This document shows positions 1 to 40,682 of a DNA stretch of 63,548 bases, piece after piece. The DNA lies in IMG/VR virus record IMGVR_UViG_3300046167_000466, positions 1 to 63,548 of that record. One strand, 5' to 3'. The notes beneath the pieces were generated by a model, which worked only from the letters and a program-made list of their open reading frames with translations, had not been told where the DNA came from and ran no database searches. The translations under genes were made by a program, and so were the position numbers. Origin of the DNA: a virus. Lineage: Duplodnaviria; Caudoviricetes. Position 1 is the stretch's first letter. Every line of letters begins with the position of its first letter.

Positions 1-296
1 ACTGTCAAATTGTACGCCATCAACAAACTCAACATAAGTTTCGTTTGTATCAGACTCTTCCATTAGAACGACTCCATTTTTTCCAACTTTTTCATAAGCT
101 TGTCCAATTTTATCTCCAAGCTCTGTGTCGTTGTTGCATGAAATACTAGCAACTTGCTTAAGCATGTCACCTTTAATTTCAATACTGGCTTTATTAAGAT
201 AAACCATAACTTTTTCAGCGCCACTAGTAATGCCACTTTTAAGCTCTCTAACTTCTTCTTCATTTAAGTGCTTATTAACTGTTTTAAGTAAAGAAT
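1..296. repeat. 296-bp direct terminal overlap (copy 1), circular assembly junction
   Basis: actgtcaaattgtacgcc...gtaaagaat at 1-296 recurs at 63253-63548; the junction lies within the groEL frame. Confidence 0.97.
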
Positions 297-15563: not shown

Positions 15564-15847
15564 TGACTGAAAAAGAACTCGAAGCGTTAGCTATTAAAGT
15601 TGCTGATCTTGTTATGGTAGGCTTAATTGAAAAGCAGAAAGAATGGGATCAGCAATTCACTAATGACGTAAACCAAATGTTTACAGGTACTAATGCAGAG
15701 CTTGTTAACGAAGAAGAGCTATTGCTCGCTGAATTAGCTAGGCTAATGACATTACTATCTGGATATGAAGAAAAAGAGCAGTTTGAAAAAGCTGCAATTA
15801 TACACAATAAAATTAAATATATAGAAAATAAAATAAATAGATTATGA
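15563..15847 (+). CDS. Hypothetical protein with C-terminal UVR-like coiled coil
   Basis: EEKEQFEKAAIIHNKIK. Confidence 0.6.
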   Translation: MTEKELEALAIKVADLVMVGLIEKQKEWDQQFTNDVNQMFTGTNAELVNEEELLLAELARLMTLLSGYEEKEQFEKAAIIHNKIKYIENKINRL

Positions 15848-16680
15848 TAAAACCAATGCTCGCATACAAAGTAGGCAAAAAAGAAGTCGACTGGTCCGAG
15901 AAAGTATTTATACAACCTAAGCTTGACGGCGTACGCTGTGTAATATCTAAAGACGGCGCTTACTCACGCACCGGTAAAGAGTGGCTTAATATCCATCACA
16001 TTACTGCAAACCTCGAACCGTTCTTCGAAACGTATCCTGACGTGATACTCGACGGCGAACTATATAACCACGACCTAAAAAATGATTTCGAAAAAATTAT
16101 TTCACTTGTTCGTAAAACTAAACCCTCTGAGGGTGATCGAGTTGAGTCTGCCGGATATGTACAGTTTCATTGCTACGACTACTTTTACGCACCTAGTAAT
16201 GATAATTTTTCTAGCCGAATTACGTGGCTTAAAAATGAATTACCGGAAAGCTACTGTGTTAAATTTACTAACACATACTTAGTTGATAAATACGAAGAGG
16301 CTTTAAACATGCACAACGATGCTTTCTTAGCTAATGGCTACGAGGGTTCTATACTGCGCCTTGACAAACCGTACGAATGTAAACGTTCTTACAACCTTCA
16401 AAAGTTTAAAGACTTCCACGACACTGAGGCAACTATTGTTGGCTATGTACCGGGCAAAGGTAAGTTTACTGGCTTGATCGGTAAATTTCTTATGCAAGAT
16501 GACGATGGCATAGCGTTCGGCTGCCCTATCGGCAAAGGCTACAACTTTCAAGATCGTCGAGACATTCTAAACAATGTGCATGACTATATTGGCAAACGTG
16601 CTACGTTTACATACTTTGAACGTACAAAAGCCGGCAGCTATCGTCATCCTCTGTATAAAACACTACGTAACTATGAGTAA
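15844..16680 (+). CDS. ATP-dependent DNA ligase
   Basis: KPMLA, QPKLDGVRC (motif I), ILDGELY, YEGSILR, KFK, OB-fold C-terminus. Confidence 0.93.
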   Translation: MIKPMLAYKVGKKEVDWSEKVFIQPKLDGVRCVISKDGAYSRTGKEWLNIHHITANLEPFFETYPDVILDGELYNHDLKNDFEKIISLVRKTKPSEGDRVESAGYVQFHCYDYFYAPSNDNFSSRITWLKNELPESYCVKFTNTYLVDKYEEALNMHNDAFLANGYEGSILRLDKPYECKRSYNLQKFKDFHDTEATIVGYVPGKGKFTGLIGKFLMQDDDGIAFGCPIGKGYNFQDRRDILNNVHDYIGKRATFTYFERTKAGSYRHPLYKTLRNYE

Positions 16681-16780
16681 ACTAATATGGCAACTATACA
16701 ACGAAAATATGATAAGCGAAGAAGTCGCTCACCTATTATTAGACAAACATTATAACAGAGTTAATAAGAAAAGGTTTTAA
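16673..16780 (+). CDS. Small hypothetical protein
   Basis: MSKLIWQLYNEN..., coupled between ligase and the next gene. Confidence 0.5.
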   Translation: MSKLIWQLYNENMISEEVAHLLLDKHYNRVNKKRF

Positions 16781-17283
16781 TGAATATATTTTATTTACAC
16801 CCAGACCCAGCTAAAGCTGCTAGTTTCTTTTACGACAAGCACAAAGTCAAAATGATTTTGGAATCGGCGCAAATGTTATGTACTGCGCATCATGTATATA
16901 ACAACGGTGACAACGTGCCATATAAAAAAGCACACCTTAATCATCCAAGTACCATATGGGTACGTGATAGTATACACCACTACAATTGGTTGTACGATCA
17001 CATGCTTGCATTAGGTAAAGAGTATACAGCTAGATACAATAAGCATCACCTCAGTATTGCTAAGTGTCGTGAGGCTTTAATGTACCCGCCTTCAGGTATG
17101 CCAGACAATGGATTTGTCCAACCACCTCAATGTATGCCTGACGAATATAAAGAGACTAGTAGCTTAGCTGCGTACTGGAATTATTACGAACAAGAAAAAC
17201 ACACAGTAAAAAATAAAAATGAGCAAAAAATTATACGACCACATTATATCAACGAATTATGCGAACATTACAAAGAAAGTTAA
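16780..17283 (+). CDS. Pyrimidine-dimer DNA glycosylase (DenV/Pyr_excise-like)
   Basis: MNIFYL...DKHKVKMILESAQML...HLNHPSTIW...EYTARY...PPQCMPDEYK. Confidence 0.8.
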   Translation: MNIFYLHPDPAKAASFFYDKHKVKMILESAQMLCTAHHVYNNGDNVPYKKAHLNHPSTIWVRDSIHHYNWLYDHMLALGKEYTARYNKHHLSIAKCREALMYPPSGMPDNGFVQPPQCMPDEYKETSSLAAYWNYYEQEKHTVKNKNEQKIIRPHYINELCEHYKES

Positions 17284-17453: not shown

Positions 17454-17489
17454 CTAATATATAATAAATAGTAAGAAGCTAATGTCATA
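17443..17489. promoter_or_regulatory. Inverted-repeat site TGCGACG-N33-TGTCATA (copy 3), overlapping the HTH gene start
   Basis: Right arm overlaps ATG 17482. Confidence 0.65.
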
Positions 17490-18117
17490 CTACGACCGAA
17501 ATACCAAATATCTAGAGCAGCATCGTATTATATACCGGCAAAATCCAACAACAGACGAACCAACAGAATCGTTTGACTGGGGTTGGTATTATGAAAACGG
17601 TACACATCAATGCTATACACTCTTTAACTCGCGAGCTAAAATAAACACGTATAAGAGCCTTAAATGGCATTTGTATGTGTTATGGTATCTTAATCCTCAA
17701 ATGGATCAAGAAGCGTTCGCAGGGCTTGTTAAATACATTTGTAATAAGCGCACGGGGTTTGTAACCTTCAATGTTTCAGATCAGCTTAGGGAAAGCATGA
17801 TATATGATGTTTCGTTAATGGAATTAGATACGCCGCCACCAAATAAACTACGTAAAGTTATATTTAAAGACTTCACTGGTTTAGATATGCGACAAAAGCT
17901 TTCTATAGTAGGTAAGTTAGTTGGTAGGTCTAAAATATCTGAAAGCGAAATATACGATGCGATGCTACTTATAAATGATAGTGAAATTAAAATAACGGTT
18001 GCAAGACTTGCTGATTCACTTAAATGTTCCACAAGAACTATATACCGTAATATGAGTAATGAGTTGAAAAAAGAAAAAGAATTACTTAATCAACAAGTTG
18101 ACCCGTTTACAAACTAA
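17482..18117 (+). CDS. DNA-binding protein with C-terminal HTH (possible replication initiator or regulator)
   Basis: ITVARLADSLKCSTRTIYRNM. Confidence 0.7.
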   Translation: MSYYDRNTKYLEQHRIIYRQNPTTDEPTESFDWGWYYENGTHQCYTLFNSRAKINTYKSLKWHLYVLWYLNPQMDQEAFAGLVKYICNKRTGFVTFNVSDQLRESMIYDVSLMELDTPPPNKLRKVIFKDFTGLDMRQKLSIVGKLVGRSKISESEIYDAMLLINDSEIKITVARLADSLKCSTRTIYRNMSNELKKEKELLNQQVDPFTN

Positions 18118-18144: not shown

Positions 18145-18903
18145 ATGAAAAAATATAACATACAAAATTATATAAGATATAAAGAGGATCTAAAGACTTC
18201 TATATGTAATCTAGAAGGTAAGTTTTATGATGAATATACCAGAGATGAACTTATAATAAAGTTTATGCCACTTGTTGAGAATCTAGCGCGTAAGTTTGCA
18301 ACTTCGGATCAAGCGTCTGGTGTATTAAGTATAAACGATTTAATACAAGAAGGCAACAAGGGTTTAATTTTAGCTGTAGATAAGTTAGATTGGGGTATGC
18401 TTAATGATTCCGAAGATATTGAAAAAACTTTAAAAAGTTTCTTTAGCAAAAGAATTAAAGGAGCTATAAGACGCGCGATTGATATTAACCGAGGCGACAT
18501 ACGTATACCTGAACACAAGCTAAATGAAATACGTAAAAATCCTAAAGACGAAAAAATTGTTATGATGTTTTTCAATTCTATATTTTCTAGCATTGATGCT
18601 AATTATAATACAGATGAAGAAAATCCATTGTATCAAATACCTGATGAATCTGAGCCATACAATATAAATTTACTTAATGCTTATTTATTAAGTTTAATGA
18701 AACAACACTTAACAAGTATTGAGTATGAAGTATTACGATTATCATATGGCTTGGATTGTGACAAACACTCTGCTAACTATATAGCAGGCAAATTAAATAT
18801 AAATGTAAACACTGCAAATGTGCGTGTTTCACAAATAAAAAGAGAAGCTATAAACAAACTTATCGCTAACACTGACGCAAACCAAGTGATTGATTATCTG
18901 TAA
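18145..18903 (+). CDS. Sigma70-family RNA polymerase sigma factor
   Basis: Region 2: LVENLARKF...DLIQEGNKGLILAVDK...RIKGAIRRAI...IRIPEH; region 4: VLRLSYGL...RVSQIKREAINKL. Confidence 0.9.
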   Translation: MKKYNIQNYIRYKEDLKTSICNLEGKFYDEYTRDELIIKFMPLVENLARKFATSDQASGVLSINDLIQEGNKGLILAVDKLDWGMLNDSEDIEKTLKSFFSKRIKGAIRRAIDINRGDIRIPEHKLNEIRKNPKDEKIVMMFFNSIFSSIDANYNTDEENPLYQIPDESEPYNINLLNAYLLSLMKQHLTSIEYEVLRLSYGLDCDKHSANYIAGKLNINVNTANVRVSQIKREAINKLIANTDANQVIDYL

Positions 18904-18966: not shown

Positions 18967-19506
18967 ATGACCATTAATCAAAAACTGGCGACGATCCAGA
19001 CAAAGTTTAAATCGAAGAAAAGTAGATTTAACTCATTCGGCAAATATTACTTCCGATCAGCCGAAGACATTCTCGAAGCAACAAAACGATTTCTATTAGA
19101 ATTAGAAGTTAGTGTAACAATTAATGAAAAAGTAGTCTTAGTAGACTCCCCTTTTCCAATGATTGAATCTACTGCAACCATAACTGACGGCAAAGATGCT
19201 ATACACGCTACGGCGATTGTTGGCGTTGACCTTGATCAGAAAGGTATGCAAATGCCTCAAAAATTCGGTAGCGCTTCGAGTTACGGAAAGAAGTATGCGT
19301 TAGGTAATTTGTTCCTAATAGATGACACTCAAGATTCTGACGCTGTAAATACTCACGGCAAAGGAGCGAGTGCAACATTAACATCAACAAAAGATCCAGC
19401 ATTTGCTAAGGCAAAGGATTATGTGCAAAAAGGCGGAAAGCTTGATGCAATTAAAAAGAAGTATAAATTAAGCGCTGAAGTTGAAAAAGCGTTAACAACA
19501 CTTTAA
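18967..19506 (+). CDS. ERF-family single-strand annealing protein
   Basis: NSFGKYYFRSAEDILEA...QKFGSASSYGKKYALGNLFLIDD..DSD. Confidence 0.9.
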   Translation: MTINQKLATIQTKFKSKKSRFNSFGKYYFRSAEDILEATKRFLLELEVSVTINEKVVLVDSPFPMIESTATITDGKDAIHATAIVGVDLDQKGMQMPQKFGSASSYGKKYALGNLFLIDDTQDSDAVNTHGKGASATLTSTKDPAFAKAKDYVQKGGKLDAIKKKYKLSAEVEKALTTL

Positions 19507-20238
19507 ATGAAAAACAAAGCAGCTATTGAAAAGCTAAGAGACGATAAAAACTACTATGGCAAGTTTGGTAAACAATACTTGTCTAATAGTGATATTGGAA
19601 CTTTGCTTACAAATCCTTTAGCACTCGGTACACCATTAAAACCGTCAGCTGCATTTTTAGTTGGCGGTTACTTTCACACTGCAATACTAGAGCCAGATAA
19701 GCTTAAGAAGTATAAGATAGTAGAAAGTTCTACGCGGAATACCAAAGCGTATAAAGAGATCTCAGGCGGTGAGCTGTGTCTTCTACAAAAAGAAGTAGAT
19801 CAAATTGAACTAATGACAGACAAGATGTTAGAGAACGATGTCTGCCGTGGTTTAATACGGGGTACTAAAGTAGATTACGAACAGCCTGCGATTACAGAGT
19901 TAGAAGGCTTGCAATGGAAAGGCAAAGCGGATATTGTTAATCACGAAGAAGGTTTAATAATTGATTTAAAAACCACGGGTGATATAACAAAATTTCGTAG
20001 CTCAGCATGGCGATACAATTACGACTCACAAGCTTACATTTATAGTAAACTATTTGGTTATGAAATGTTGTTTATAGTAATAGACAAAAATACACACCAA
20101 ATAGGAATATTTGATTGCTCACCTGAATTTTATCAGCGCGGTGCAGACAAAGTTCAACAAGCGGCAGAACAATATAAATTGTTTTACCAAAATCCGGATT
20201 TCGATCCAAACAATTATTTTATTAACAAAACCCTTTAA
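19507..20238 (+). CDS. PD-(D/E)XK exonuclease (RecE/DUF3799-like)
   Basis: LSNSD, GGYFHTAILEP, KGKAD, IIDLKTT, YDSQAYIY. Confidence 0.85.
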   Translation: MKNKAAIEKLRDDKNYYGKFGKQYLSNSDIGTLLTNPLALGTPLKPSAAFLVGGYFHTAILEPDKLKKYKIVESSTRNTKAYKEISGGELCLLQKEVDQIELMTDKMLENDVCRGLIRGTKVDYEQPAITELEGLQWKGKADIVNHEEGLIIDLKTTGDITKFRSSAWRYNYDSQAYIYSKLFGYEMLFIVIDKNTHQIGIFDCSPEFYQRGADKVQQAAEQYKLFYQNPDFDPNNYFINKTL

Positions 20239-20919: not shown

Positions 20920-22629
20920 ATGCAGACAACAGAGATCAATGGATTTGTTATTGACGAGTTCAATATACATAAGCTTGAAGAGGGTAAAAAGCAGGGTGTA
21001 TGCCCTGTGTGCTCCCACGATAGAAAACCCAAGAATCAAAAAGCAAAATGTGCTTCTTACGATTGGGAACGGGGTCTCGGTACTTGTCATAATTGTAATA
21101 AATCATTTCAACTACATACGTATCAGCGCAAAGGTAAAGCTGAAAAGGTTTACGTTAAACCTGAACCAGTTGCTATACACAAGCCAGGTACAAAAGTAGA
21201 AGAGTGGTTTAAAACTCGTGGTATATCTCAGGAAACCCTTGCTGATCTTAAAATTAGTGAGGGCCCTGAATATATGCCTCAGACCGGTAAATCCGAGAAT
21301 GTAATAAAGTTCAATTATTTTATGGGCGGCGAATTAACTAATGTTAAATACCGTGATGGAAGAAAGAACTTTAAATTATATAAGGGTGCTGAAAAAGTAT
21401 TCTACAATATAGATAGCATCGTAGGTTGGGAGTATTGTATTATTGTTGAAGGCGAAATGGACGTATTAGCGTTGCATGAAGCTGGTATAACAAACGCAAT
21501 ATCTGTTCCTAACGGTGCAACACTTAATACTAACAACTTAGATTATTTAGACAATTGTATAGATTATTTCGAAGACAAAGAGAAGATTATATTGGCCGTA
21601 GATTCAGACGAAGCTGGCCAAGCCTTACAAACAGAGTTAATACGTAGATTAGGATCTGAAGTATGCTACATAGCAACGTTTGATGATTGTAAAGACGCTA
21701 ACGAATATTTAATAAAGCATGGAAAAGAAAAATTGGCGGAGCGTATTTCAAGAAGCAAGCCGGTACCGCTGGAAAATGTTACTACTTTCAGAGACATCGA
21801 AGATGAAGTTACGGACTTTGTTCGTAATGGCTTTAAGAAAGGATTTCAAGTTGGGCTTAGTAATTTTGATGAAATATTTTCAACTTATACCGGTCAATTT
21901 ATTACTGTCACTGGTATACCTTCTTCCGGTAAAAGTGATTTTGTCGATCAAATGGTTGTCGGCTATAATGCGAACTATGGTTGGAAAACAGCTTTCGCTT
22001 CGCCAGAAAATGTACCAACGTATCTTCACGCTCATAAGTTAATGCGTAAGACTTGGCAAGGTATGCCTTCTAAAGAAGATATTGGTGGTGATAAATGGAA
22101 TCAAATAGCGGATCATTGTAATGATAATTACTTCCACATTGATATGGAACGTTATACTTTAGAATCAGTGCTTAAGAAAGGTGCTGAGCTGGTTAAGCGT
22201 AAAGGTATTAAATGTTTAGTTATAGATCCATACAATAAAGTTAGAGACGTTGATTGTAAAACTGAAGATGTTAATCGTTATACAATGGAGTACCTAACTA
22301 AGATTGAAATCTTTGCTAAGAAGTTTGATGTGTTAGTCTTTATAGTGGCTCACCCTACTAAGATGTATAAAACGCAAGATGGTAAAATTGAAGAACCATC
22401 AATGTATAACATTAAAGGCGGTGGTGAATGGTATGATGCTAGTTATCATGGGCTATTAGTTCACAGAGACTATGAGGCTAAAACTGTTAAAGCTAAAGTA
22501 TTGAAAGTTAAATTTCAAAACCTTGGTGAGAATGGCGCTGAAGCTCATTTCAAATGGGAGCCAAAGTCAGGTTGTTTCATTCCTCACGAGCAAGTTAATC
22601 TTGCTGGCGAGAAAATGCCCTGGGAATAA
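20920..22629 (+). CDS. Primase-helicase (T7 gp4/Twinkle-like)
   Basis: Zn finger CPVC...CHNC, TOPRIM VEGEMD/DSDEAG/KDAN, Walker A GIPSSGKS, LVIDPYN, VAHP. Confidence 0.93.
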   Translation: MQTTEINGFVIDEFNIHKLEEGKKQGVCPVCSHDRKPKNQKAKCASYDWERGLGTCHNCNKSFQLHTYQRKGKAEKVYVKPEPVAIHKPGTKVEEWFKTRGISQETLADLKISEGPEYMPQTGKSENVIKFNYFMGGELTNVKYRDGRKNFKLYKGAEKVFYNIDSIVGWEYCIIVEGEMDVLALHEAGITNAISVPNGATLNTNNLDYLDNCIDYFEDKEKIILAVDSDEAGQALQTELIRRLGSEVCYIATFDDCKDANEYLIKHGKEKLAERISRSKPVPLENVTTFRDIEDEVTDFVRNGFKKGFQVGLSNFDEIFSTYTGQFITVTGIPSSGKSDFVDQMVVGYNANYGWKTAFASPENVPTYLHAHKLMRKTWQGMPSKEDIGGDKWNQIADHCNDNYFHIDMERYTLESVLKKGAELVKRKGIKCLVIDPYNKVRDVDCKTEDVNRYTMEYLTKIEIFAKKFDVLVFIVAHPTKMYKTQDGKIEEPSMYNIKGGGEWYDASYHGLLVHRDYEAKTVKAKVLKVKFQNLGENGAEAHFKWEPKSGCFIPHEQVNLAGEKMPWE

Positions 22630-22904
22630 TGCCAAGTTTATATGGCAAGCGAGCAAAACCAATGCCACCATATACCGCTAGCGATGAAGAGTGGAAGGCG
22701 TATAGATATTGTGTTAGAAACAACATAAGAATATCACCTTATGGAATACAAAATGATACGGATCACTGGCATATAGCTATTAGTTTAGGTCCATATCAAA
22801 AATGGGAAAAGCCACACTTGTCACCGAGCAAGTATTGTAGAAAAACAATTTGGATAGAGTATTATAAAATGTGTAAATATTATTATGATAAATATAGAAA
22901 ATGA
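22629..22904 (+). CDS. Hypothetical protein
   Basis: 91 aa, coupled to the helicase. Confidence 0.65.
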   Translation: MPSLYGKRAKPMPPYTASDEEWKAYRYCVRNNIRISPYGIQNDTDHWHIAISLGPYQKWEKPHLSPSKYCRKTIWIEYYKMCKYYYDKYRK

Positions 22905-23721
22905 ATATAGAGGACTTATGGCAGGAATTCTCTACGGAGGATCTGACAAGGCGGATAGAACAGAGACTGGGACGAAGTCTGTCTTCGGAAGAACGATTAA
23001 GCATGACATGTCACTTGGCTTCCCTATACTCACATCAAAGAAAATAAGTTTTAATGCAGCAAGAACAGAATTGCTTTGGATATTACAAGGTAGAACTGAT
23101 CTTAAATACTTAGAAGATAATGGTGTTAAGTATTGGAGACCAGACTATGAACGTTCAGGCAGAACAGACGAAACACTTGGTCCTGTATATGGCAAGCAAT
23201 GGCGCGATTTTAATGGTGTAGATCAGCTTTATAAACTTGTAGGCAACATAAGTATTAATCCGAAATCAAGACGTCTTATGGTTAGCGCATGGAACCCGGC
23301 TGATATGCCGGATATGGTTTTACCTCCATGTCATTATGCTTTTCAAGTATATATTAACAACGGCACAATGGATTTGATGTGGCAGCAACGTTCGGCTGAT
23401 GTATTTTTAGGTTTGCCTTATGATATTGCAATGTACGGTTTGCTATTAGAAATGCTAGCTAAAGGTGCTGGTTTGAAAGCTGGTAGACTTATTGGCCAAC
23501 TTGGTGATTGTCATTTATATAATAATCATTTAGAGCAAGCCCAAGTATACTTAGATAGACCAAAGCGAGCATTACCAAAGCTACAATTAGATGAAGGTAT
23601 TAGAATATCTAAAAAAATGGATGCTCATAGTAAGTTAATTATACCAGAAATTGATGAAATAAAATTAAATAACTACAATCCTTTACCTGCTATTAAAGCG
23701 GAACTAAGTGTTGGTAACTAA
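22885..23721 (+). CDS. thyA: Thymidylate synthase family protein (Asp at the Asn177 position)
   Basis: DRTETGT, ELLW, GPVYGKQWR, SRR, LPPCH, QRSADVFLGLPYD, DCHLY. Confidence 0.9.
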   Translation: MINIENEYRGLMAGILYGGSDKADRTETGTKSVFGRTIKHDMSLGFPILTSKKISFNAARTELLWILQGRTDLKYLEDNGVKYWRPDYERSGRTDETLGPVYGKQWRDFNGVDQLYKLVGNISINPKSRRLMVSAWNPADMPDMVLPPCHYAFQVYINNGTMDLMWQQRSADVFLGLPYDIAMYGLLLEMLAKGAGLKAGRLIGQLGDCHLYNNHLEQAQVYLDRPKRALPKLQLDEGIRISKKMDAHSKLIIPEIDEIKLNNYNPLPAIKAELSVGN

Positions 23722-23729
23722 CAAAAAAT

Positions 23730-24500
23730 ATGTATAACATTTATCACATTCCTGGTAAAAAGATCGGAGTTACATGTGATCTTAATAAGAGGGTTACGGA
23801 GCAGCAAGGTTATGCACCAGGCGAATACGAAGTTTTATTTACGAGTGATGATATTAATTTAATATCTAACAAAGAGATAGAACTTCAACAGTCTTATGGC
23901 TACAGAAAAGACAGAACATTATATAAAAATTTATTTAAATCAAATATGAGAATAAACCCAACAGAACAAACAAGTACATTCCCTGTTCCTATAAATAAAC
24001 TTAAGGGCAACCTTATGGATAACATAGGATTGGAATGGGAAACACCAGACTATAAGTTTAAATTAGAAAAAGAACATATACCCTGGGTAATGCAAAACGC
24101 AAGAACCTCGATGTTTAATGACGATCGAAGCTATATTTACAATAAGGCTTTCTATGAAGCCTTTTTTAATCCAAAGCATAATCCAAAGACAACAGCTCTA
24201 AACAGCACTAGATTTGATTTAATACGCGATTGGGCCGCTGTAAGGGGTATATATGACAAAGGCGATTCTAATACTCAATATGTTAAACTAATGGAAGAAG
24301 CTGGAGAACTAGCTAAAGCATTACTTAATAAAGATAAACCAGAAGTTATCGATGCTATTGGTGATATGATAGTTGTATTAACAAACTTAGCTGCTTTAGA
24401 AAATCTTAATGTAGAAGACTGTATTGATTCAGCTTACAAAGTAATAGCACAGCGTAAAGGTAAAATGATTAACGGAACGTTTGTAAAACAAACATTATAA
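23730..24500 (+). CDS. MazG-like NTP pyrophosphohydrolase with N-terminal GIY-YIG-like extension
   Basis: C-terminal KLMEEAGELAKA...DAIGDMIVVL; N-terminal YNIYHI...KIGVTCDLNKR. Confidence 0.8.
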   Translation: MYNIYHIPGKKIGVTCDLNKRVTEQQGYAPGEYEVLFTSDDINLISNKEIELQQSYGYRKDRTLYKNLFKSNMRINPTEQTSTFPVPINKLKGNLMDNIGLEWETPDYKFKLEKEHIPWVMQNARTSMFNDDRSYIYNKAFYEAFFNPKHNPKTTALNSTRFDLIRDWAAVRGIYDKGDSNTQYVKLMEEAGELAKALLNKDKPEVIDAIGDMIVVLTNLAALENLNVEDCIDSAYKVIAQRKGKMINGTFVKQTL

Positions 24501-24597: not shown

Positions 24598-24861
24598 ATG
24601 AATAAAAAAGAAATAGAATTTAGAGACCCAGTTGTTGAACGCGTAGTAGATAAGTTTATATCTAGATCAGATATTGGCTTTGAAAAATACGGAATAACGC
24701 TTGAAGAAGATATGTCTAATGTTTTTATTTGGATAAATCATTTACAAGAAGAACTTATGGATGCTGTGTTGTACCTTCAAAAGCTTAAAGAATCTAGCAC
24801 TGAAGAGTTACAAGAAGCGCTATTAAAAAACATCGAAGTAAATGAGGAAACTACCTTATAA
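24598..24861 (+). CDS. Hypothetical phage protein
   Basis: RSDIGFEKYGITL...HLQEELMDAVLY. Confidence 0.7.
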   Translation: MNKKEIEFRDPVVERVVDKFISRSDIGFEKYGITLEEDMSNVFIWINHLQEELMDAVLYLQKLKESSTEELQEALLKNIEVNEETTL

Positions 24862-25435: not shown

Positions 25436-25588
25436 ATGAAAGAAAATCCAAATGAATCCGCATGGTCAATATCTATAGGTTTTTATCCTGGAGTTTTAAT
25501 AGGTATGAGAACATACCCGGAACAAGACCACACAACGCACGTATTTTATTTACCATTCATAGACCTAGCAATAGAAATATATAAGTAA
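25436..25588 (+). CDS. Small hypothetical protein (50 aa)
   Basis: Manual ORF ...WSISIGFYPGVLIGMRTY...YLPFID; TAATG coupling to nrdB. Confidence 0.55.
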   Translation: MKENPNESAWSISIGFYPGVLIGMRTYPEQDHTTHVFYLPFIDLAIEIYK

Positions 25589-26556
25589 TGGGGTTATTTG
25601 ATGAGCGCGTAGCGTATAAGCCATTTGAATATCCTGATTATTATACAGAAGGTTGGCTAAAGCAAGCACAGGCATTTTGGTTACACACTGAAATACCTAT
25701 GCAAGGTGATATAAAAGACTGGAAAGAAAAATTAACACCAGAAGAAAAGAATTTAGTAGGTAATATACTATTAGGTTTTGCACAAACCGAATGTGCTGTT
25801 TCAGATTACTGGACACAAAAAGTGGTATCATGGTTTCCTAAACACGAAATACAGCAAATGGCCATGATGTTCGGGTCACAAGAAACAATACATGCTGTAG
25901 CGTATAGTTATTTAAATGAAACACTTGGTCTTGAAAATTATGAAGCCTTTCTCCATGAGCCTGCAACTGCTGAAAGGTTTGACAACCTGGTTGCTTATGG
26001 CGGGACAAGCTCTGTTGGTATTGGCAAGTCTCTTGCTGTTTTTAGTGCTTTTGCTGAGGGGGTTAGTTTATATTCTGCTTTTGCTGTTCTCTATTCTTTT
26101 CAATTAAGAAACTTATTAAAAGGTATAGGGCAACAAATGAAGTGGAGTGTGCGAGACGAATCTTTACACAGTAAAATGGGGTGTAAGTTGTTTCGTGATA
26201 TGTGCAGTGAAAACAATCAATTATTGGATTTATGTCGGGAAGATATTATTTCTGCCGCCGAAACAATGGTAAAACTTGAAGGTAAGTATATAGATAAAAT
26301 GTTCGAGATGGGTGACATTGAAGGCATTAAAGCAAATGATTTAAAACACTTTATAAAGAAAAGAACAAATGAAAAACTGGTGGAACTTGGTTATATTGAC
26401 CTTGGCTCGTACTTCCCGTATGACAAAGATGCAGCGGCTAATCTTGATTGGTTCTATCATCTTACCGGCGGGGTCACTCATACTGATTTTTTCGCGGTTC
26501 GGCCGACGGACTATTCGAAAGCTGGTGAAGGTGAGGACTTTGAAGACATTTGGTAA
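25588..26556 (+). CDS. nrdB: Ribonucleotide reductase class I beta subunit
   Basis: FWLHTEI, QETIHAVAY (radical Tyr), AEGVSLYSAF, RDESLH, DFF...TDY. Confidence 0.93.
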   Translation: MGLFDERVAYKPFEYPDYYTEGWLKQAQAFWLHTEIPMQGDIKDWKEKLTPEEKNLVGNILLGFAQTECAVSDYWTQKVVSWFPKHEIQQMAMMFGSQETIHAVAYSYLNETLGLENYEAFLHEPATAERFDNLVAYGGTSSVGIGKSLAVFSAFAEGVSLYSAFAVLYSFQLRNLLKGIGQQMKWSVRDESLHSKMGCKLFRDMCSENNQLLDLCREDIISAAETMVKLEGKYIDKMFEMGDIEGIKANDLKHFIKKRTNEKLVELGYIDLGSYFPYDKDAAANLDWFYHLTGGVTHTDFFAVRPTDYSKAGEGEDFEDIW

Positions 26557-26579: not shown

Positions 26580-26852
26580 ATGAAGACCTCTACGACAAAG
26601 CGTAGTCTGTTGAAAGCGCTTGTAAGACAAAGAAGATTAAAGCCTCAAGAGAGGATAGCAAATAGGTTAGGATATATGGGGACTGGATTTATGATGACAG
26701 CTCCCCATCTCCTGCCGGATACAACTGGCATGGTAGTATATATTATCGCCGGCGTAATATCAATACCGCAAGTATTTGTTGCAAAGCAATGGAACTTAGT
26801 GGCGGTTAATTTAAACGTAGCAATAGCCTACACAATATTATACTTTACATAA
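26580..26852 (+). CDS. Small multi-pass membrane protein between nrdB and nrdA
   Basis: Three hydrophobic segments. Confidence 0.65.
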   Translation: MKTSTTKRSLLKALVRQRRLKPQERIANRLGYMGTGFMMTAPHLLPDTTGMVVYIIAGVISIPQVFVAKQWNLVAVNLNVAIAYTILYFT

Positions 26853-28570
26853 TGTGGAATGAAAACTGGAAAAAAGGTGAGGATTACCCGGCGTGGGGTA
26901 ATAACGACGTATACAAGAAAACTATATCCGGGGGATATTTATTGTACGACGAATCACCGAGAGACGCTTACATGCGGGTTGCTAAAACAGTTGCTCGTAG
27001 ATTATATAAGCCAGAAATGGCGGAAACTTTTTTTGAATATATCTGGAACGGTTGGTTATGCTTGGCTTCGCCGGTTCTTAGTAACACTGGCACCGACCGC
27101 GGCTTGCCTATTAGTTGCTTTGGTATTGATGTTGCTGACTCGATACAAGATATAGGGCAAAAGAATTTAGAGATGATGCTACTCGCTAAGCACGGCGGTG
27201 GAGTTGGCATTGGTATAAATCAAATTAGACCCGCTGGCGCTAAAATTACAGGTAATGGAACATCAGACGGAGTTGTCCCCTTTTGCAAAATCTACGACTC
27301 AACTATCCTCGCGACTAATCAAGGCTCTGTTCGCAGAGGCGCAGCATCAGTCAACATCAATATTGAACACGACGATTTTGAAGAGTGGCTTGAAATTAGA
27401 GAACCAAAAGGCGACGTTAACAGACAGTCACTCAACCTTCATCAATGCGCAGTTGTTGGTGATAAGTTTATGCGACGCCTTGAACAAGGAGATTCGGAGG
27501 CGCGGACTAGATGGAGTAAACTTATTAGAAAGCGAAAAGCAACTGGAGAACCGTATATATTGTTTAAAGGAAATACTAACAAAGCAAATCCAGCAGCATA
27601 TAAAGACAACGGGTTAAAAGTACATATGACTAACATATGTTCAGAAATTACATTACACACAGATGAAAATCATAGTTTTGTATGTTGTTTATCATCATTA
27701 AATTTAGCAAAATATGAAGAATGGAAAGATACTAATCTTATATACGACTCCATTTGGTTTCTTGATGGTGTTATGGAAGAATTTATTCAAAGGGCCAAAG
27801 GACTTAGAGGATTTGAAAACGCAATACGATCAGCTCAAAAAGGAAGGGCCTTGGGCTTGGGGGTCCTTGGATGGCATACATATATCCAGGAAAAAGGTGT
27901 TCCTTTCGAAGGTTTACTTGCTCAGTTTGAAACTAGGAAAATATTTTCACAAATTAAGATCGAAAGTGAAAGAGCCTCGAGAGACCTGGCCGAAATTTAT
28001 GGAGAGCCTTTATGGTGTGTTGGGACGGGTATGCGTAATACTCATCTACGGGCTATTGCTCCTACTGTTTCTAATAGCAAGCTTAGCGGTAATGTTTCTC
28101 CTGGTGTTGAGCCGTGGGCTGCGAATGTTTTTACAGAGCAGAGTGCGAAGGGGACTTTCATTAGGAAGAACCCGACACTCTTAAAGCTTCTTAGAAAACA
28201 TAAGTTAAATACAAATGAAATATGGGATAAGATACTTGCTGATGGTGGTAGTGTACAAGACATTAAAGAACTTGATGATATAACAATGGCACACGATATA
28301 CCGGCTAAAGATGTATTTAAAACCTTTAAAGAAATAAACCAACTAGAGCTAGTAAATCAAGCAGGCATACGCCAGCAATACATAGATCAGTCGGTTAGTT
28401 TAAATCTCGCTTTCCCAAGTGTTGCAACACCAAAATGGATTAACCAAGTACATATGCAAGCATGGAAGAACGGAATAAAGACTTTGTATTATACTAGAAC
28501 AGAAAGTGTTCTACGCGGAGATATAGCACAACAGGCTATGGATCCTGAATGCGCTGCTTGTGACGGTTAG
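26852..28570 (+). CDS. nrdA: Ribonucleotide reductase class I alpha subunit (no ATP cone)
   Basis: ASPVLSN, PISCF, GGGVG, RRGA, TNICSEI, GLGVLG, APTVSNS, DQSVS, KTLYY, C-terminal CAAC. Confidence 0.95.
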   Translation: MWNENWKKGEDYPAWGNNDVYKKTISGGYLLYDESPRDAYMRVAKTVARRLYKPEMAETFFEYIWNGWLCLASPVLSNTGTDRGLPISCFGIDVADSIQDIGQKNLEMMLLAKHGGGVGIGINQIRPAGAKITGNGTSDGVVPFCKIYDSTILATNQGSVRRGAASVNINIEHDDFEEWLEIREPKGDVNRQSLNLHQCAVVGDKFMRRLEQGDSEARTRWSKLIRKRKATGEPYILFKGNTNKANPAAYKDNGLKVHMTNICSEITLHTDENHSFVCCLSSLNLAKYEEWKDTNLIYDSIWFLDGVMEEFIQRAKGLRGFENAIRSAQKGRALGLGVLGWHTYIQEKGVPFEGLLAQFETRKIFSQIKIESERASRDLAEIYGEPLWCVGTGMRNTHLRAIAPTVSNSKLSGNVSPGVEPWAANVFTEQSAKGTFIRKNPTLLKLLRKHKLNTNEIWDKILADGGSVQDIKELDDITMAHDIPAKDVFKTFKEINQLELVNQAGIRQQYIDQSVSLNLAFPSVATPKWINQVHMQAWKNGIKTLYYTRTESVLRGDIAQQAMDPECAACDG

Positions 28571-29563: not shown

Positions 29564-32500
29564 TTATTGCTGCATTAATATTTCTTGTTTCTTTCTTTTG
29601 TTTTCTGCTCTTGTAGCCGATGCTTTTCTAGCAGCTTCGCTTCTTCTTCTTTTTTCTTCAGCCATATAAGCTTGCTTTTCTTCAGGGCTCATTAAAGCTA
29701 ATTCATCAAGTTTCTGTTGCTGCTTTCTCTTTCTTGTTTCAGCGGCTTTCTTTTTGCCTTCTGCTTTACGATTTGCTTTACCGACAAGCTTAACCCATTC
29801 TTCTTCCTCTTTTCTAGCTTTAACATCCCATGTTCTCCAACCTAATCCCAAAGCTAATCTTTGATAAGATGTATTTCTAGCGTCAAGCGCCTCTGCTATA
29901 CCGTCTATTTCAGCTAAAGCTCTATCTAGCGGTAGGTTTAATCCAGCAGATGAAAGTGATGCTAATATTTCGTAATTAGGTGATATGTTAAATCTTCCGT
30001 CTAAAGTAACATCCCAGCCTTGAGCTTCCATTACATCTTTGTCAAACTTCTTAGTTTGAATTGCGCCGTATACTTTCCTCATCTTAGAACCTATAGGCGG
30101 CGATACGTTCGCTAGTTCTAATAGCGTGTAGGCGTGATCAGCATTATAACCTTTCTTCTCTTCTTTATAGTATCTATTAATTGTGTTCTTTAATGTTGAT
30201 ACTACCGCACCTGTTAATCCAGATCCCCTGAGAATAGTGTCCACCATAGAATTAACAATTCTTTCAGTCTTTGTATTAATGATTTTTTCGTACTGCTCAT
30301 CGTCTTCTTCTTCATCATCAAATCCTGGTATTAATGCAAATAATGAATTTTGCAGCGCACTAAATATAAGGTTTTGTATAAACCCATAATAAGCTATCTT
30401 ACTAATATTAGTCTTAGCATCGCCACGGCCGTTTATAAGATCCTGGCCAGCTTTTTTCATTAATCTAGTGTATTGCATCGGCGTATTTTGAAAAGCCAAT
30501 ACAAGACGCCCTAAATGACTCGACTGTTGTGCAGATACAAGCATAGGATCACCTGATTGCTGTGTCTCATCAGAGATAGCGCTAAAGTCTTCAAATGCTT
30601 TTGCTTCCGCTTCTGCCTGTGATAAACCTTGCTTCTTATAAGTTTTTGTTCTGTTAATTAAAAACGTAGCGCCTCCTGTTGCAATAGCAAAACTATCCGC
30701 TATTTGAGTAGGTGTGAAACCTATTTTTAATAAGTATGCAACTACAGCGCTCGCTTTGTCTTTACTGTTCTTAGCTTGGTTGGCTATCTCTTGCTCTTGC
30801 ACATCGGATTTTAAACCACCACGACGTTCTTTAAGTTTATCAGAGTTAAATATTTTTGACCATGCACTCCAGTATGCTGGTTGATTAGCAAATGCGATAC
30901 CAGCTTTTAACGGATTATTATCACCCCAATTTACAAAGTTAGCAAATGACAACATCTGCATTGCTGCTGATCTACGGTTAAAAAACATTATAGTACCTAC
31001 AGAGTTGTTAACCCAGTTTAACCATTGTTGTTCATAAGCTCCTGGCTGGGCCGGTCTGTTACGGCCAGACTTCATTCGAGCTATTGAGTTCTTTAAAGCA
31101 TTTACATAGCGAGTGCCGTACGCAGCTTCTAGTTTGGTTAAATTGTTTTCGTCAAATATAATATCAACGTTATCGTTAAACTCCTGTAAGTACTCGCCTC
31201 TTGTAAGCACTTCGTTAATTTCATTAATATCTTTTAAAACAGAGCCTGCTATCCAATGCTCGCTCGGAGCAGGCCATTGATCTTGTTTTGATATTGTCTG
31301 CAGACCTTGAGCAAACGACGTTAACATTGGGTCTTTAGCTATCAAGCTGTTTAGTTTCTTTTGATCTCTTTTGGATATACCAGGAACCTCTTGCCCTTGC
31401 TGTGTCCATAAGTATACACGTACCGCTTGATCAACAGTGTAATCTGTGTCTCCGATTTGTTTACCTAAACGTTTTTTCATTCCGGGTAAAGCTTTTAATA
31501 AAGTAGCAAAATCATTTTTAAGCGCACGCCTAGCCTTCTCCATAGCGGCTATACCTCTCATATATGGCGCCACTAAATTATCTTCAAAGAATTTTTGATC
31601 AGCTTCACCTTGCTTGCCTTTACCAGCCAATGTATATGACGTTAGCCCTCTAAAGTCCTCTGCCCCATACGGTAAGAAAACTTTAAATCTACCCTTTTTA
31701 GCGCCTTCTTTTCTTGCTCTGATCTTAGAGTATACGGCTTCAGACGCAATACCTTTATTGCGCTCAATCATATCGTTAAGGTCTTTACCCAGCGCGGCGC
31801 TTCTTTTAACTCTTGCTTGCTGCACTTTACCTTTAACATCAAACGTATTAAGAACATCCTTAACAGCCTTAACATTACCCATATGGTCATCTACAAAATA
31901 AAAGTCATTATAACCTTCTGAAACTTTGCCTACCATCCACGCAGCCTTTGCAGCAGGGGCGCCATTGGCGAGCCCAGTTATGTTTTCAAGCGGTATCTCT
32001 AACCCTATACCTTTTAAAAATCCGTGTATAGCATTTGCCGATTCTGCTGGCCTAGCTGTTAATACAAATATATTTTTGTTACCAAACTTTTGTATTGCCT
32101 TTTTTAATCTAGGGGCTAACGGTCCAGGCGTACCTTTAACAACCTTACTAAATTCACTAAAATCAAATTCAGCTCCTGACTTAGCAAGTTGATCGCCTTG
32201 CTTGGCAAATTCGGCAGGTGTTATTTTCTTTGTTGTACGCGGTACATCTTTTAATACTTTCGCTTGCTCTTCTTTTGTAAGGTTATCAAACTTTCTTAAG
32301 AAACCCGGGAGATCTTTAAACTCATTTGCAAATAATCTTCTAGCGGCAATATCAAGTATTTCTTTATTTGGAGGCATTTTTACTATAACCTCGCTTTTGC
32401 TAAATGCAAGAGTATCATCAAAGTCATATACACTAATACCTTTGGGGTTAGCGGCATATGATTGTTTTCTAGCATTATTTATAGCTTTTTGCTCTGTAGC

Positions 32501-35500
32501 TATTTTAGCGCGCTCAGCAACGTTTTTGGCGCTAAACATTGTATTTAGTAAGGTTTGTACCCTACCAATTGTTTGTAATCCCTTTATATCGTAAAAAGCA
32601 TTTTGGCTTTCTAGTGGTATAGCTAATAATCTTAAGTCGCCAATATCGCTTGTTGATCCTAGCTTTGCGTCCTGCAGATCAGATAATACTTTAGTGTTTA
32701 ATTGTTGATTAAACTCTGTAGTTAATTCATTAATCTTTGCGATTAAAGCATCTTTAACTTGTTGCACGCCGCCGGGGTTTTGCAAAGCGATACCTAGCAT
32801 CGTTAAATACTCTTTAGCGACAGCTACATTAAAATTAGATGAAGGTGTTGCATGCTCACCTTTTATTCTTAATAACTGAGCTAAGGTTTGTTTAGAGCCA
32901 TCAGCTATAAACTTTTTAGCCTCTTTGTAGTTGGGGTGATTTTCATTAAGAACAATTTCACCAGATTCAACTTTTGATACTTGGCTAGCGGTTAATGTGT
33001 TACTATATCCCTTGCCGTTTTGGGTATTTATGTAAACAGCTTGAGATGCAGCTGTCATTTGTATATCGCTAATACCTGTTAAAGATCTAAGTGACTTGCC
33101 TATATTAGTCGTAGACTCTAGCATCCTTAAGAATCCAACGGCTTGTTGTGGTTTAGCTACAGCAATATCAAACGCTGTAGATATAACTTTTTCTATAGCT
33201 TTTTTATTTGCTACATTTAAAGCGTCTACTTCCTCACCGTACTTGTCTATAAAAGCATCAACTTTATCTTGAGCGGTTTGGAATTCTTTATTTAATATAT
33301 CCTTTGTTATAGTAGCGACAATGCCGGAACCAGCTTGTATTAAGCGCATGTCCTCAGGATTAAATCCTATGTCTTCACCTGTATCGGGTAATGCTTCTAT
33401 TTTTGCTCTTATTTTAGCGCCTAAAGACTTTGCTTCTTTAGGGTTTAAATATCTATAATGCGCGCCAAAGAAATCTGCTCCCAAAGCTTTTACTAGTGCG
33501 TTTGGTAAAGCATCTATCATAGCTGTACTAAACTGATAGTATTCCTTCATTGCTTGTTTGTTATCACGAGCTGAATTGTTTTCAAAATACTGATCAATAA
33601 ACGGCTGTACATTTTCTGGTGCGTCCTTCCATTTCTTAATAGATTGCTTATACCTAGCCGTGTCAACTTTTATATTAGCTGTAATATTTTCATAAGCTGC
33701 TCTGTCTTCGGCTGACAATACTTCCAGTAATGCTAATGAACCATCTAGGTCTCCGTCTATTTCCAATGCTAACGCATCTCTAAATATTGTTTGAGTGTTT
33801 ACAATAGCGCTTCTTTTAACAAGACCACGTTCGCTTTGCTTTGCTACTTCCTCAACAAAGTTATCCGCTATAGCCATACCAAGCATCTCTTGATTATTTT
33901 CAAAAGCTTGACTTATAGGACTATCTGGATCCTTTAATGCGTCGTTTATAACATCAAAACCGTATTCTTCAGCTAGCGCTTTAGATAAAGATTCTTTACG
34001 GCCACGTATAACGTCACCATCTTTAAACATATAGCTAAGAAATTGTTCGTCAGTAATTTTGTTTGCCGCATTTGGTAAACGTCTTACTATTTCAGGGCCC
34101 GATGTTTTACCTTGTTGTTTGGTTGATGTCTTTGCTCTATCTATTGTTTTACCTTGCCAATCGCTAGTGTATTTAGGTATAAATATAAAATCACCGTTAG
34201 AGTCTTTAACTCTTTTGCCTTCGTTGTCAACTTTATAAGTACCGCCGACAGATTTTTGTATTGTAAACGGCATAGCTTGCATCAACCATGTGGTTGTCAT
34301 GTTCTCAAGTATAGCTTTCTTGTATCTAAGTACATTTTTCTTAAGCTCATCACCCTTCTTTTTGCCTAGCATCTTTTTAAACTCAATATCGATTGCCTTG
34401 CCAAGCTCACGCTTCAGCTCATTGATAATAGGTGTTACAGACGCGTTAGGCCCTAACGGTGCATCTAATCTGCTTTTTAATACTCTAGCTATAGATATTA
34501 TTTTTTGCTCTACAGCTTTAGCTTGCTCTGCCGGTAATATTCTTGTTTGTGTAAGATTTCTATATTTAGGTTTTTCTTGCGTGACTGGAGCCTGCTCTGG
34601 TGCAATTAAATCTTTTTGATCTTCAGGCTGTAAATTGTCGACCGTACCTAAAAATTGTCTTTCGGTTGGTTGTAGTTTATACTCTGCTCTAACAACGTCA
34701 GCTATACGAAAACTAATTCTTCCGCCAAGATAACCACTTAGTTGGCCTCTCCCGTCCCAACCTGTATTTTCTTTGGCTAAGTATATTCTTCCAACAACTT
34801 CAGCTGTAAAATCTTGCAACGCTTGAGGTGGCAATGTATATCTCCCGGCTATTTGAGCTGCAACCATGTTTGTAATCTCTTCAAACAATAAGGCTTGAGC
34901 TCTTGGCCCAGACAGTTGCTCTTTTGTTATAAGATTAACCCTTGCATTACTTTTTGCCGCCGCTGAACTTATTTGCTGTTTAGTTATTCCGCTACCAGCT
35001 ATTCCTTTCTTTATTGAAAAGCCAGCAGCTTTGTTTTGAAAATTAGCAACAAAAGCGTAAACATCACTTGCACTATTAATTTTAAATAACGGCGCCATAT
35101 CACCATTAAATTTTTGCAACAAATTGTTAATAAATGTTTTTGCTCCAAACAAATTACCGTAACTGCTTCTAGGCAAAATACCTATTGCCGTGAAGTCCCC
35201 TATAAGCTGTATAAGCTCATCTGCATCAACACCATTAGTTTCAGTATATTTTCCTTTACCTTCTTTTGTATAATAAGCCATACGCTCATTAAAAACATTC
35301 ATTTCTTCCTGCGTGATCTTGCCTTGCTCAAATCTAGACTGTACGTCTTGTAATATATTTTGTACAATATCATTAGCAGAATCAACTGCTAGCTTATCGT
35401 TTTTTATTAGGCCAGCCGCAACAGCTTGCTGGTGTCCTATTTCATGTAAAGGTGATACCGCAGCTATTTTAGCATTTATACCGCCTTGGGACATTTGATT

Positions 35501-40335: not shown

Positions 40336-40360
40336 ATTACGTATTATTTACTGCTCTCAA
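40336..40360 (-). promoter_or_regulatory. Putative late promoter TTGA-N15-CGTAAT
   Basis: Precedes the internal-protein genes. Confidence 0.55.
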
Positions 40361-40682
40361 ATGTCTCTGAAGCTAAAGAAAAAAGTTCTATTTTCTTTTT
40401 ACTGTCATTAATCATTCCGACTTCAGCATAATATCCTTTTAAAGCGCTAGTATTTGCTTTATTTGTTTTAGAAAAAAGTATAAAGCTTGTTAGCGTTGGT
40501 CGTATTGTTGCACCGTCTATATTTGCTACAATTTGGTTTAAACCTTGGTTAATATTTGTTATAACCCCTATTTCTACAATATCATCACCGTTTATATCAT
40601 TTGTATAATATACGGTATCTCCAACCTGAACAGATGTGTTTAACGGTTGCGGGAAAGTTAATGTTATTTGTTGTATTGCCAT
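40344..40682 (-). CDS. Tail-associated protein
   Basis: 112 aa; LNTSVQVGD and LKGYYAEV...ELFS. Confidence 0.6.
   Translation of the reverse strand: MAIQQITLTFPQPLNTSVQVGDTVYYTNDINGDDIVEIGVITNINQGLNQIVANIDGATIRPTLTSFILFSKTNKANTSALKGYYAEVGMINDSKKKIELFSLASETFESSK

Follow-up and report, generated by a model that had tools for sequence, protein, structure and literature searches.

A candidate 5-methyl-dCMP synthase on a ThyA-like scaffold in uncultured phages, probably of flavobacteria

In this work, we analyzed the thymidylate synthase homolog encoded on the plus strand, at positions 22885-23721, of the IMG/VR virus record IMGVR_UViG_3300046167_000466. The record in its whole length of 63,548 bp is the window of this study, and it is classed as having direct terminal repeats and as 100% complete. 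Judging from its sequence, we consider it fairly probable that this gene encodes a folate-dependent C5-methyltransferase of deoxycytidine monophosphate (dCMP), that is, a 5-methyl-dCMP (5mdCMP) synthase as in phage Xp12, acting here in a minimal, host-dependent setting. That the phage DNA itself is substituted with 5-methylcytosine (5mC) is a separate proposition, to which we give somewhat less than an even chance. An earlier note on this DNA had already pointed to the Asp codon in the synthase, and to a MazG-like gene next to it, as signs of a possible methyl- or hydroxymethylcytosine pathway. The features of the synthase open reading frame (ORF) on which the argument turns are the following:

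22885-23721, plus strand: thymidylate synthase homolog of 278 amino acids (aa), matching PF00303 (Thymidylat_synt) over profile positions 2-266 of 266 with an E-value of 9e-84 and 281.2 bits (cut-off 24.3)
23320-23331, plus strand: Leu146-Pro-Pro-Cys149, with Leu three residues before the catalytic Cys (Cys-3), as L143 in E. coli
23329-23331, plus strand: catalytic Cys149 within LPPCH, equivalent to C146 in E. coli
23398-23400, plus strand: GAT, Asp172, equivalent to the folate pterin contact Asp169 in E. coli
23422-23424, plus strand: GAT, codon 180, Asp180, equivalent to Asn177 in E. coli

Synthase positions are given in E. coli numbering from here on. The presence of Asp in the place of Asn177, as read by the earlier note, was borne out by both alignment methods used. 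In the HMMER alignments to solved thymidylate synthases, QRSADVFLGLPYDIAMY of the query lies over QRSADVFLGVPFNIASY, and in the MAFFT alignment to E. coli K-12 ThyA the query stretch lies over QRSCDVFLG-LPFNIASY, with Asp in the Asn177 column. The same column of the MAFFT alignment holds Asp in T4 gp42, which confirms what had been said of the T4 dCMP hydroxymethylase, as well as in the Xp12 synthase, and Asn in the SP8 hydroxymethylase, which acts on deoxyuridine monophosphate (dUMP). At positions 143, 146, 147, 169 and 177 the query reads L-C-H-D-D against L-C-H-D-N in ThyA, so that the catalytic PPCH is intact, also as claimed. The Asn177 that characterizes the canonical, dUMP-methylating ThyA (EC 2.1.1.45) is replaced by Asp in the window and in its relatives; even so, automatic naming still yields ThyA, with a score of 272.9 against a cut-off of 108.35 for NCBIfam TIGR03284 and the name 'thymidylate synthase' from JGI, and this is also every public name that we saw for relatives of the synthase. 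Of the four reference enzymes, E. coli ThyA is the most similar to the query (41-42% identity), followed by the Xp12 synthase (28%), the SP8 enzyme (23%) and T4 gp42 (22%). As for the start of the gene, in L003, L004, L006 and other relatives the frame is open for 10-30 codons upstream of the start (MAKQKYGQKYLN...) and so runs into the final part of the small gene before it, which makes the true start uncertain in those relatives.

The meaning attached to this residue comes from previous work. The exchange of Asn177 for Asp shifts ThyA from dUMP to dCMP methylation, as the earlier note had stated and as is described in part of PMC8670742; according to the same source, Asp177 is enriched in metaviromes among viral contigs with fully modified cytosines, and position 147 is the second most discriminating one. 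The Xp12 enzyme and five of seven metagenomic synthases of the Asp type gave 5-methyldeoxycytidine (5mdC) in E. coli when T4 deoxynucleoside monophosphate (dNMP) kinase was co-expressed (bioRxiv 10.1101/2024.12.05.627091, in the part consulted).

We examined how constant the Asp is among related sequences. A scan of IMG/VR returned 300 stretches that encode relatives of the synthase, from which 80 loci (65-86% identity) were kept, or 81 with the window's own locus. The equivalent of position 177 is Asp in 81 of 81; the motif pattern matched 79 of these loci, and the other two (L075 and L076) read GLPYDF, likewise with Asp. It is also Asp in all of the 120 best homologs at the level of 90% clusters (82-90% identity), of which 119 fit the pattern and one, P0159, deviates only at the Gly173 column. 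Among the best 150 representatives of 50% clusters, on the other hand, 138 have Asn at this position, 11 have Asp and one has Ser. Neither sequencing error nor chance variation accounts for the Asp. Furthermore, R21, K48, E58, W80, Y94, R126, R127, L143, C146 and H147 are invariant in the 81 loci, and so are Q165, R166, S167, D169, F171, L172, G173, H207 and Y209; the residues expected of the thymidylate synthase superfamily (Cys146, the phosphate-binding Arg, Glu58, Tyr94 and His207/Tyr209) are all present. Since catalytic and binding residues and the Asp are invariant across relatives that are 65-86% identical, the enzyme is under selection as a catalyst with Asp in its specificity position. 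An idle or regulatory ThyA relic, acting by nucleotide binding or as a translational repressor without turnover, would hardly preserve all these residues at such divergence, and we regard this explanation as very improbable. All of the 4170 phage records with a synthase match lie below 60% identity and no close cultured relative was found among them, and a limited literature search turned up nothing on this specific phage family.

Whereas Asp177 concerns the substrate, other positions bear on the product, on which the earlier note had left a choice between 5-methyl- and 5-hydroxymethyl-dCMP. Hydroxymethylases are described as having Asp or Glu at Cys-3 (PMC6400193, and the L143D/E rule in section 24 of PMC13326640), a Ser/Thr-x-Tyr motif that holds the substrate water, and no C-terminal tail of the kind that seals the ThyA site for hydride transfer (both in the portion of PMC6400193 consulted), whereas in 5-hydroxy-dCMP synthases of the RB69 gp48 type Asn replaces Asp169 (PMC13326640, section 28). 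In our alignments the Cys-3 position is Leu in 81 of 81 loci, as against Asp in gp42 and the SP8 enzyme; the query reads G-P-V-Y where the Ser/Thr-x-Tyr motif would be; its C-terminal tail is retained, unlike in hydroxymethylases, with ...IKAELSVGN aligned to ...IKAPVAI of E. coli; and position 169 is Asp in 81 of 81. The C-termini of the relatives mostly read ...LSV followed by 0-2 residues, or ...LAV, and a few are longer (...LSVGGGAMV in L075 and ...INVGTTN in L069). What the query does combine is Asp177 with the catalytic Cys, a non-acidic residue at Cys-3 and a conserved Asp169, as the 5mdCMP synthase of Xp12 does. The predicted product is 5mdCMP, with dihydrofolate as the folate product, because the Asn177 to Asp rule applies and the hydroxymethylase and 5-hydroxy rules do not; of the two products proposed earlier, the signatures thus favour methyl and fail for hydroxymethyl.

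A dCMP hydroxymethylase, or an enzyme making another C5 product such as 5-hydroxy-dCMP, that feeds a hypermodification pathway would agree with the Asp177 shared by the query and gp42, and the many ORFs of the early region that match no known family could conceal an unrecognised tailoring enzyme. Against this stand the four features just listed, the much lower identity to gp42 than to ThyA, and the scanned ORFs, in which no glycosyltransferase or similar enzyme was recognised; we therefore hold this alternative to be quite improbable. Two further candidate signatures were tried and set aside. The pair Tyr176-Asp177 proved unspecific as a mark of dCMP methylases, with Tyr176 in 27 of 140 Asn-type sequences and Phe in 10 of the Asp type, and the missing Trp83, which might have pointed to solvent access, was not used, as the loop alignment is ambiguous there and many Asn-type sequences have Asp or Asn at this place.

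Phylogenetic analysis suggests where the Asp came from. A FastTree phylogeny was built from 165 sequences (the 150 representatives, the query, 10 chosen from the 80 relatives and four references) after the alignment had been cut down to the columns occupied by the query, and gp42 served as the root. The query and its relatives form a clade (support 0.92) beside the bulk of canonical ThyA, and Xp12 is distant. This clade joins two Asp-type representatives, P0001 and P0019 (support 0.82), the remaining Asp-type representatives are scattered singly among those of the Asn type, and a Fitch count gives about 12 Asn/Asp changes on the tree. Because the clade sits beside canonical ThyA and Xp12 is far away, the Asp switch in the query clade is of independent, ThyA-like origin. 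Alignment and tree, which had been suggested as a way of checking the idea, gave therefore Asp in the decisive column together with a position next to ThyA and far from Xp12.

Among known systems, the nearest in function would be Xp12, a phage that replaces all of its cytosine by 5mC and whose enzyme made 5mdC in vivo (bioRxiv 10.1101/2024.12.05.627091, in part). Its synthase (MT664984, coding sequence 45326-46195) is likewise of the ThyA family, with Asp177, a conserved Asp169 and the GLPYD motif. It differs in having Asn143, Pro147 and a shorter C-terminus, where the query has Leu143, His147 and a ThyA tail; Pro at 147 occurs in Xp12 and in four of the 11 Asp-type representatives, while the query clade keeps His147. 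Moreover, the Xp12 gene sits with a dCMP deaminase homolog, a dihydrofolate reductase (DHFR), a HAD hydrolase and a DNA polymerase I, none of which is found in the query genome. A closer likeness in the active site is offered by two dCMP methylases made in the laboratory, E. coli ThyA N177D and L. casei thymidylate synthase N229D (cited through PMC8670742, in part), which carry the same single change in an otherwise canonical active site; these are mutants, whereas the query belongs to a natural, conserved lineage. The MetaGPA contigs with modified cytosine share the Asp177 signature and have a PRA-PH/MazG-type domain among their common neighbours, although the neighbourhoods of MetaGPA and mSCD-B5, as described in the portions of those sources consulted, usually hold a 5mdCTP deaminase of the dCMP deaminase family and DNA_pol_A, and the query genome has neither.

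The comparison with T4 likewise cuts both ways. In T4, gp56 is a dCTPase/dUTPase and gp1 a dNMP kinase. The likeness lies in an Asp177 homolog of ThyA acting on dCMP and in a pyrophosphatase that could supply dCMP and deplete deoxycytidine triphosphate (dCTP). The differences lie in the Asp/Glu at Cys-3, the Ser-x-Tyr motif and the missing C-tail of gp42, all three of which set it apart from the query, and in the dNMP kinase, glucosyltransferase and phage polymerase, none of which was found in the query genome.

The candidate pyrophosphatase is encoded by the gene that follows the synthase:

23730-24500, plus strand: fusion of a T5orf172/MUG113-like domain with a MazG domain, 256 aa (Pfam, PHROG and structural model)
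24207-24491, plus strand: MazG domain of the fusion, residues ~160-254 (PHROG, Pfam, alignment and Foldseek)

The earlier note had called this gene MazG-like, which holds for residues ~160-254 (PF03819, PF01503 and phrog_715) and not for the protein as a whole, since it is a fusion and no plain MazG. The Pfam matches, limited to residues 173-243, reach 24.0 bits for PF03819 (MazG, cut-off 22) and 29 bits for PF01503 (PRA-PH, cut-off 21.3); the PHROG matches are to the MazG-like families 715 and 1992, with phrog_715 at 8e-28; and all 28 orthologs keep the acidic residues E189, E190, E193, D208 and D212. Foldseek searches with an AlphaFold model of the fusion (predicted local distance difference test, pLDDT, 88.9) returned MazG, HisE, the MazG-like protein of cyanophage S-2L and mouse/human dCTPase (prob 1.0, E 0.005-0.1, identity 16-27%), the dCTPase being 19% identical to the MazG domain and no closer than other MazG folds. 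The model thus assigns the domain to the all-alpha NTP pyrophosphatase fold family, in which the substrate is not readable from sequence or fold.

As regards the other end of the protein, the N-terminal ~65 residues of the window's copy match only MUG113, with an E-value of 0.039 (15 bits against a cut-off of 22.3). Among the 28 orthologs of the fusion, 20 match T5orf172 (best E 2.7e-6) and 18 match MUG113, and in the ESM Atlas neighbours of this domain T5orf172 is found in 11-48% of members; T5orf172 and MUG113 are families of the GIY-YIG clan. With the N-terminal 150 aa (pLDDT 90.3), Foldseek gave no PDB match at E <= 0.001 and a weak one to the GIY-YIG domain of UvrC (prob 0.35). Between the two ends lies a well-predicted alpha/beta domain (residues ~75-150, within 23730-24182, plus strand) with invariant T81, T83, F84, S127, Y137 and N138, for which the structural and sequence searches returned no match.

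The pairing of the synthase and the fusion is real: in 79 of 80 loci the gene immediately after the synthase encodes the fusion, and the remaining locus (L013) ends 64 bp past the synthase match. The fusion is absent from two related genomes that lack ThyA, the Elemovirus MT497017 and the uncultured podovirus MW202828. By analogy with T4 gp56 and with the PRA-PH neighbours of modified contigs, the fusion might be a dCTPase, a suggestion that we put forward as a tentative guess; the MazG domain is of a small, generic kind common in phages, homologs being present in 888 phage records. PRA-PH is indeed listed among the top neighbours in modified contigs (bioRxiv 10.1101/2024.12.05.627091, in the part consulted). 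Of the earlier proposal that MazG acts as the dCTPase partner of the synthase, the pairing has been substantiated, whereas the argument for the activity has become weaker, the domain being generic and its substrate not legible in the sequence.

The pair is embedded in a plus-strand block at 8-28.6 kb that holds the early and replication genes, the lysis and virion genes being on the minus strand. The other features recognised in this block are:

15844-16680, plus strand: ATP-dependent ligase
16780-17283, plus strand: DNA-binding protein
18145-18903, plus strand: sigma-factor-like protein (phrog_351, E 1e-21)
18967-19506, plus strand: Erf-type annealing protein
19507-20238, plus strand: exonuclease
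20920-22629, plus strand: primase-helicase (Toprim and DnaB-like), the sole replication enzyme with a Walker A motif
24598-24861, plus strand: conserved protein of 87 aa
24842-25300, plus strand: DUF1064 resolvase-like protein
25588-26556, plus strand: class I ribonucleotide reductase (RNR) beta (PF00268, 2.3e-56)
26852-28570, plus strand: class I RNR alpha (phrog_84, 7.5e-150)

RNR beta and alpha constitute a phage supply of deoxynucleotides. The 87-aa protein was considered as a second MazG-like enzyme and dropped from the pathway, as hhalign against the fusion gave a probability of 0.2. It is present in 78 of the 80 loci, and in 16 of the 80 it stands upstream of the synthase and not downstream of the fusion; among PDB sequences nothing matched it, the top hit being an unrelated ribosomal protein at E 0.012, and no Pfam family came up consistently. 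D10, R23, G27, K30, Y31, D38, W45, H48 and Q50 are invariant in its 29 orthologs, and so are E51, E52, D55, A56 and Y59. It is not specific to the module, because both synthase-less relatives, MT497017 and MW202828, have homologs of it, there inside open frames of ~160 aa.

On this basis the following mechanism can be envisaged. The Asp in place of Asn177 would make the enzyme bind the N3/4-amino face of cytosine rather than uracil. Phage RNR and host enzymes would provide deoxycytidine nucleotides, from which the fusion might split dCTP to dCMP and pyrophosphate, so feeding the methylase and lowering the competing dCTP. Through the catalytic Cys146 (Cys149 of the query itself), the methylene group of methylenetetrahydrofolate (CH2-H4folate) would be transferred onto C5 and reduced by hydride transfer, and the signatures suggest that Leu at Cys-3 and the C-terminal tail would seal the site in such a way that a methyl and not a hydroxymethyl group results. 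As no phage kinase or polymerase was found, any entry of 5mC into DNA must depend on the host: its kinases would phosphorylate 5mdCMP to the triphosphate 5mdCTP, and its replicase, brought in by the phage primase-helicase, would insert 5mC. The outcome would be DNA wholly or partly substituted with 5mC and resistant to many restriction enzymes. It is tempting to extend this scheme to a minimal pre-replicative 5mC system, composed of the dCMP methylase, the T5orf172-MazG fusion and host kinases and replicase, in which the fusion would join the hydrolysis of dCTP with the action of a nuclease-like domain on unmodified cytosine DNA. T4 endonuclease II offers an analogy for such a domain; the extended scheme is speculative and we think it improbable as a whole.

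Several observations weigh against a dCMP methylase that leads to 5mC in DNA. First, identity to the Xp12 enzyme, whose activity is proven, is no more than 28%, and the query falls in a separate clade, so that common descent of the two as methylases finds no support in the tree. Second, two of seven Asp-type enzymes tested gave no 5mdC (bioRxiv 10.1101/2024.12.05.627091, in part). Third, six-frame family searches of the complete genome found no DNA polymerase A or B and no dCMP/5mdCTP deaminase or DHFR such as those of Xp12. Nor was a dNMP kinase found, the single Walker A site being that of the primase-helicase, in a search that non-P-loop or novel kinases would escape; the absence of a recognisable phage dNMP kinase and DNA polymerase, asserted in the earlier note, thus holds for the complete genome by ORF scans, Walker A search and six-frame searches. 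Host kinases may consequently limit the flux of 5mdCMP, because in the published in vivo tests a dNMP kinase was supplied from T4, and none was found here. Pfam and PHROG scans, which covered most ORFs of at least 100 aa and left out a 112-aa ORF at 40344-40682 and some nested or overlapping ORFs, found no kinase, glycosyltransferase, DNA methyltransferase or other hypermodification enzyme in the ORFs scanned; the lack of hypermodification enzymes, for its part, agrees with a plain methyl product. Fourth, the 888 phage records with MazG-domain homologs are mostly of phages of Firmicutes (Streptococcus, Staphylococcus, Enterococcus and Paenibacillus), and none of them covers 80% of the fusion. 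Finally, the window has fewer CATG (94 observed, 170 expected, z -7) and GGCC (56 observed, 85 expected, z -3.8) sites than expected, a possible sign that the phage is still exposed to restriction.

The last point belongs to a count of 4-base palindromes, observed against Markov-expected, in the window, in 34 pooled relative loci of at least 14 kb and in MW202828. GATC (198 observed, 172 expected) and CCGG (93 observed, 89 expected) are not avoided in the window, the ratios being 1.18 and 1.13 in the pooled loci, whereas both sites are entirely missing from MW202828 (193 GATC and 26 CCGG expected); this contrast depends on MW202828 as a single comparator, probably with a different host, and is only a weak circumstantial hint in favour of modification. 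CATG and GGCC are low in the pooled loci as well (0.65 and 0.70), CATG is low in MW202828 too, and the window is also low in AATT (z -4.7), GTAC and ACGT. As a proxy for modification, palindrome avoidance gave a mixed and at best suggestive outcome and was set aside.

The missing genes also bear on a different explanation, in which the enzyme serves thymidylate supply and the DNA is essentially canonical, either by residual activity on dUMP or because 5mdCMP or 5mdCTP is deaminated by the host dCMP deaminase, the pools being shifted toward T for a genome of 37% G+C. The genome has no other thymidylate synthase, as neither a ThyX (six-frame family search) nor a second ThyA was found, and the synthase-less relative MW202828 carries a ThyX in its replication module, which marks the provision of dTMP as a usual function there; the same contrast between the two genomes also counts as context for the dCMP methylase. 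The lack of a recognisable phage kinase and polymerase suits a role at the level of pools, the TIGR03284 score and the G+C content point in the same direction, and phages with 5mC have been proposed to make dTTP by deamination of 5mdCTP (bioRxiv 10.1101/2024.12.05.627091, in part). Nonetheless, a plain dTMP synthase would have no reason for an Asp that is fixed in 81 of 81 loci and 120 of 120 homologs when 138 of the 150 nearest representatives have Asn, no phage deaminase was found, and the ordinary dUMP route would be simpler. We regard thymidylate supply as unlikely, albeit the most serious of the alternatives; such pool-level explanations are kept alive mainly because dependence on host kinases and replicase is plausible and unproven.

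As to the phage itself, its portal protein has counterparts in 87 phage records (42-55% identity), namely 68 of Flavobacterium, 15 of Cellulophaga, two of Tenacibaculum, one of Maribacter and one uncultured. Because these portal relatives are mostly from Flavobacterium and Cellulophaga phages, the host probably belongs to the Flavobacteriaceae. The sigma-factor-like gene is adjoined by that of a 211-aa protein (17482-18117, plus strand) with a helix-turn-helix at its C-terminus, which suggests that the phage, instead of encoding an RNA polymerase, redirects that of its host. The window (G+C 37.0%) has an exact terminal repeat of 296 bp, which falls inside a GroEL-like chaperonin gene (phrog_5725, E 8e-98; 62305-63548 plus 1-606, minus strand) that spans the ends of the record; since the repeat lies within a gene running across these ends, the genome is probably circular or permuted and its assembly overlaps itself, in which case the 'direct terminal repeat' would not mark physical ends. 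Near it is a GroES-like gene (phrog_13932; 58086-58685, minus strand), and groEL and chaperonin 10 are also annotated in the relative MW202828. Among the large ORFs, one of 2940 aa (29564-38386, minus strand) has no significant Pfam family and one weak sub-threshold match, and one of 1441 aa (43537-47862) has a weak match to the C-terminal domain of the crAss-virus muzzle protein (E 2.3e-4, below the cut-off); together the two may point to a virion module of crAss-like type, or one with large internal proteins, in this podovirus group.

Synthases with Asp177 that make 5mdCMP in phages have already been published, for Xp12, PaMx74 and the MetaGPA contigs; the idea is therefore not new and the gain is incremental. 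What is new here is an abundant uncultured group, a ThyA-like and independent origin, the T5orf172-MazG partner and, if 5mC is indeed made, dependence on host kinase and polymerase. As a natural counterpart of the N177D mutant in a ThyA-like scaffold, the enzyme would be a clean subject for studies of specificity. If the proposed function is true, common uncultured phages, probably of flavobacteria, replace some or all of their cytosine by 5mC, the phages concerned being those of the 300 related IMG/VR stretches and of many metagenomic homologs now labelled plainly 'thymidylate synthase'. Consequences would follow for escape from restriction, host range, methylation-aware sequencing and nanopore base-calling of viromes, and pre-replicative base replacement could then run on host kinases and a host polymerase. 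Should the minimal 5mC system also be true, an abundant aquatic phage lineage with 5mC genomes would be filed at present under 'thymidylate synthase'.

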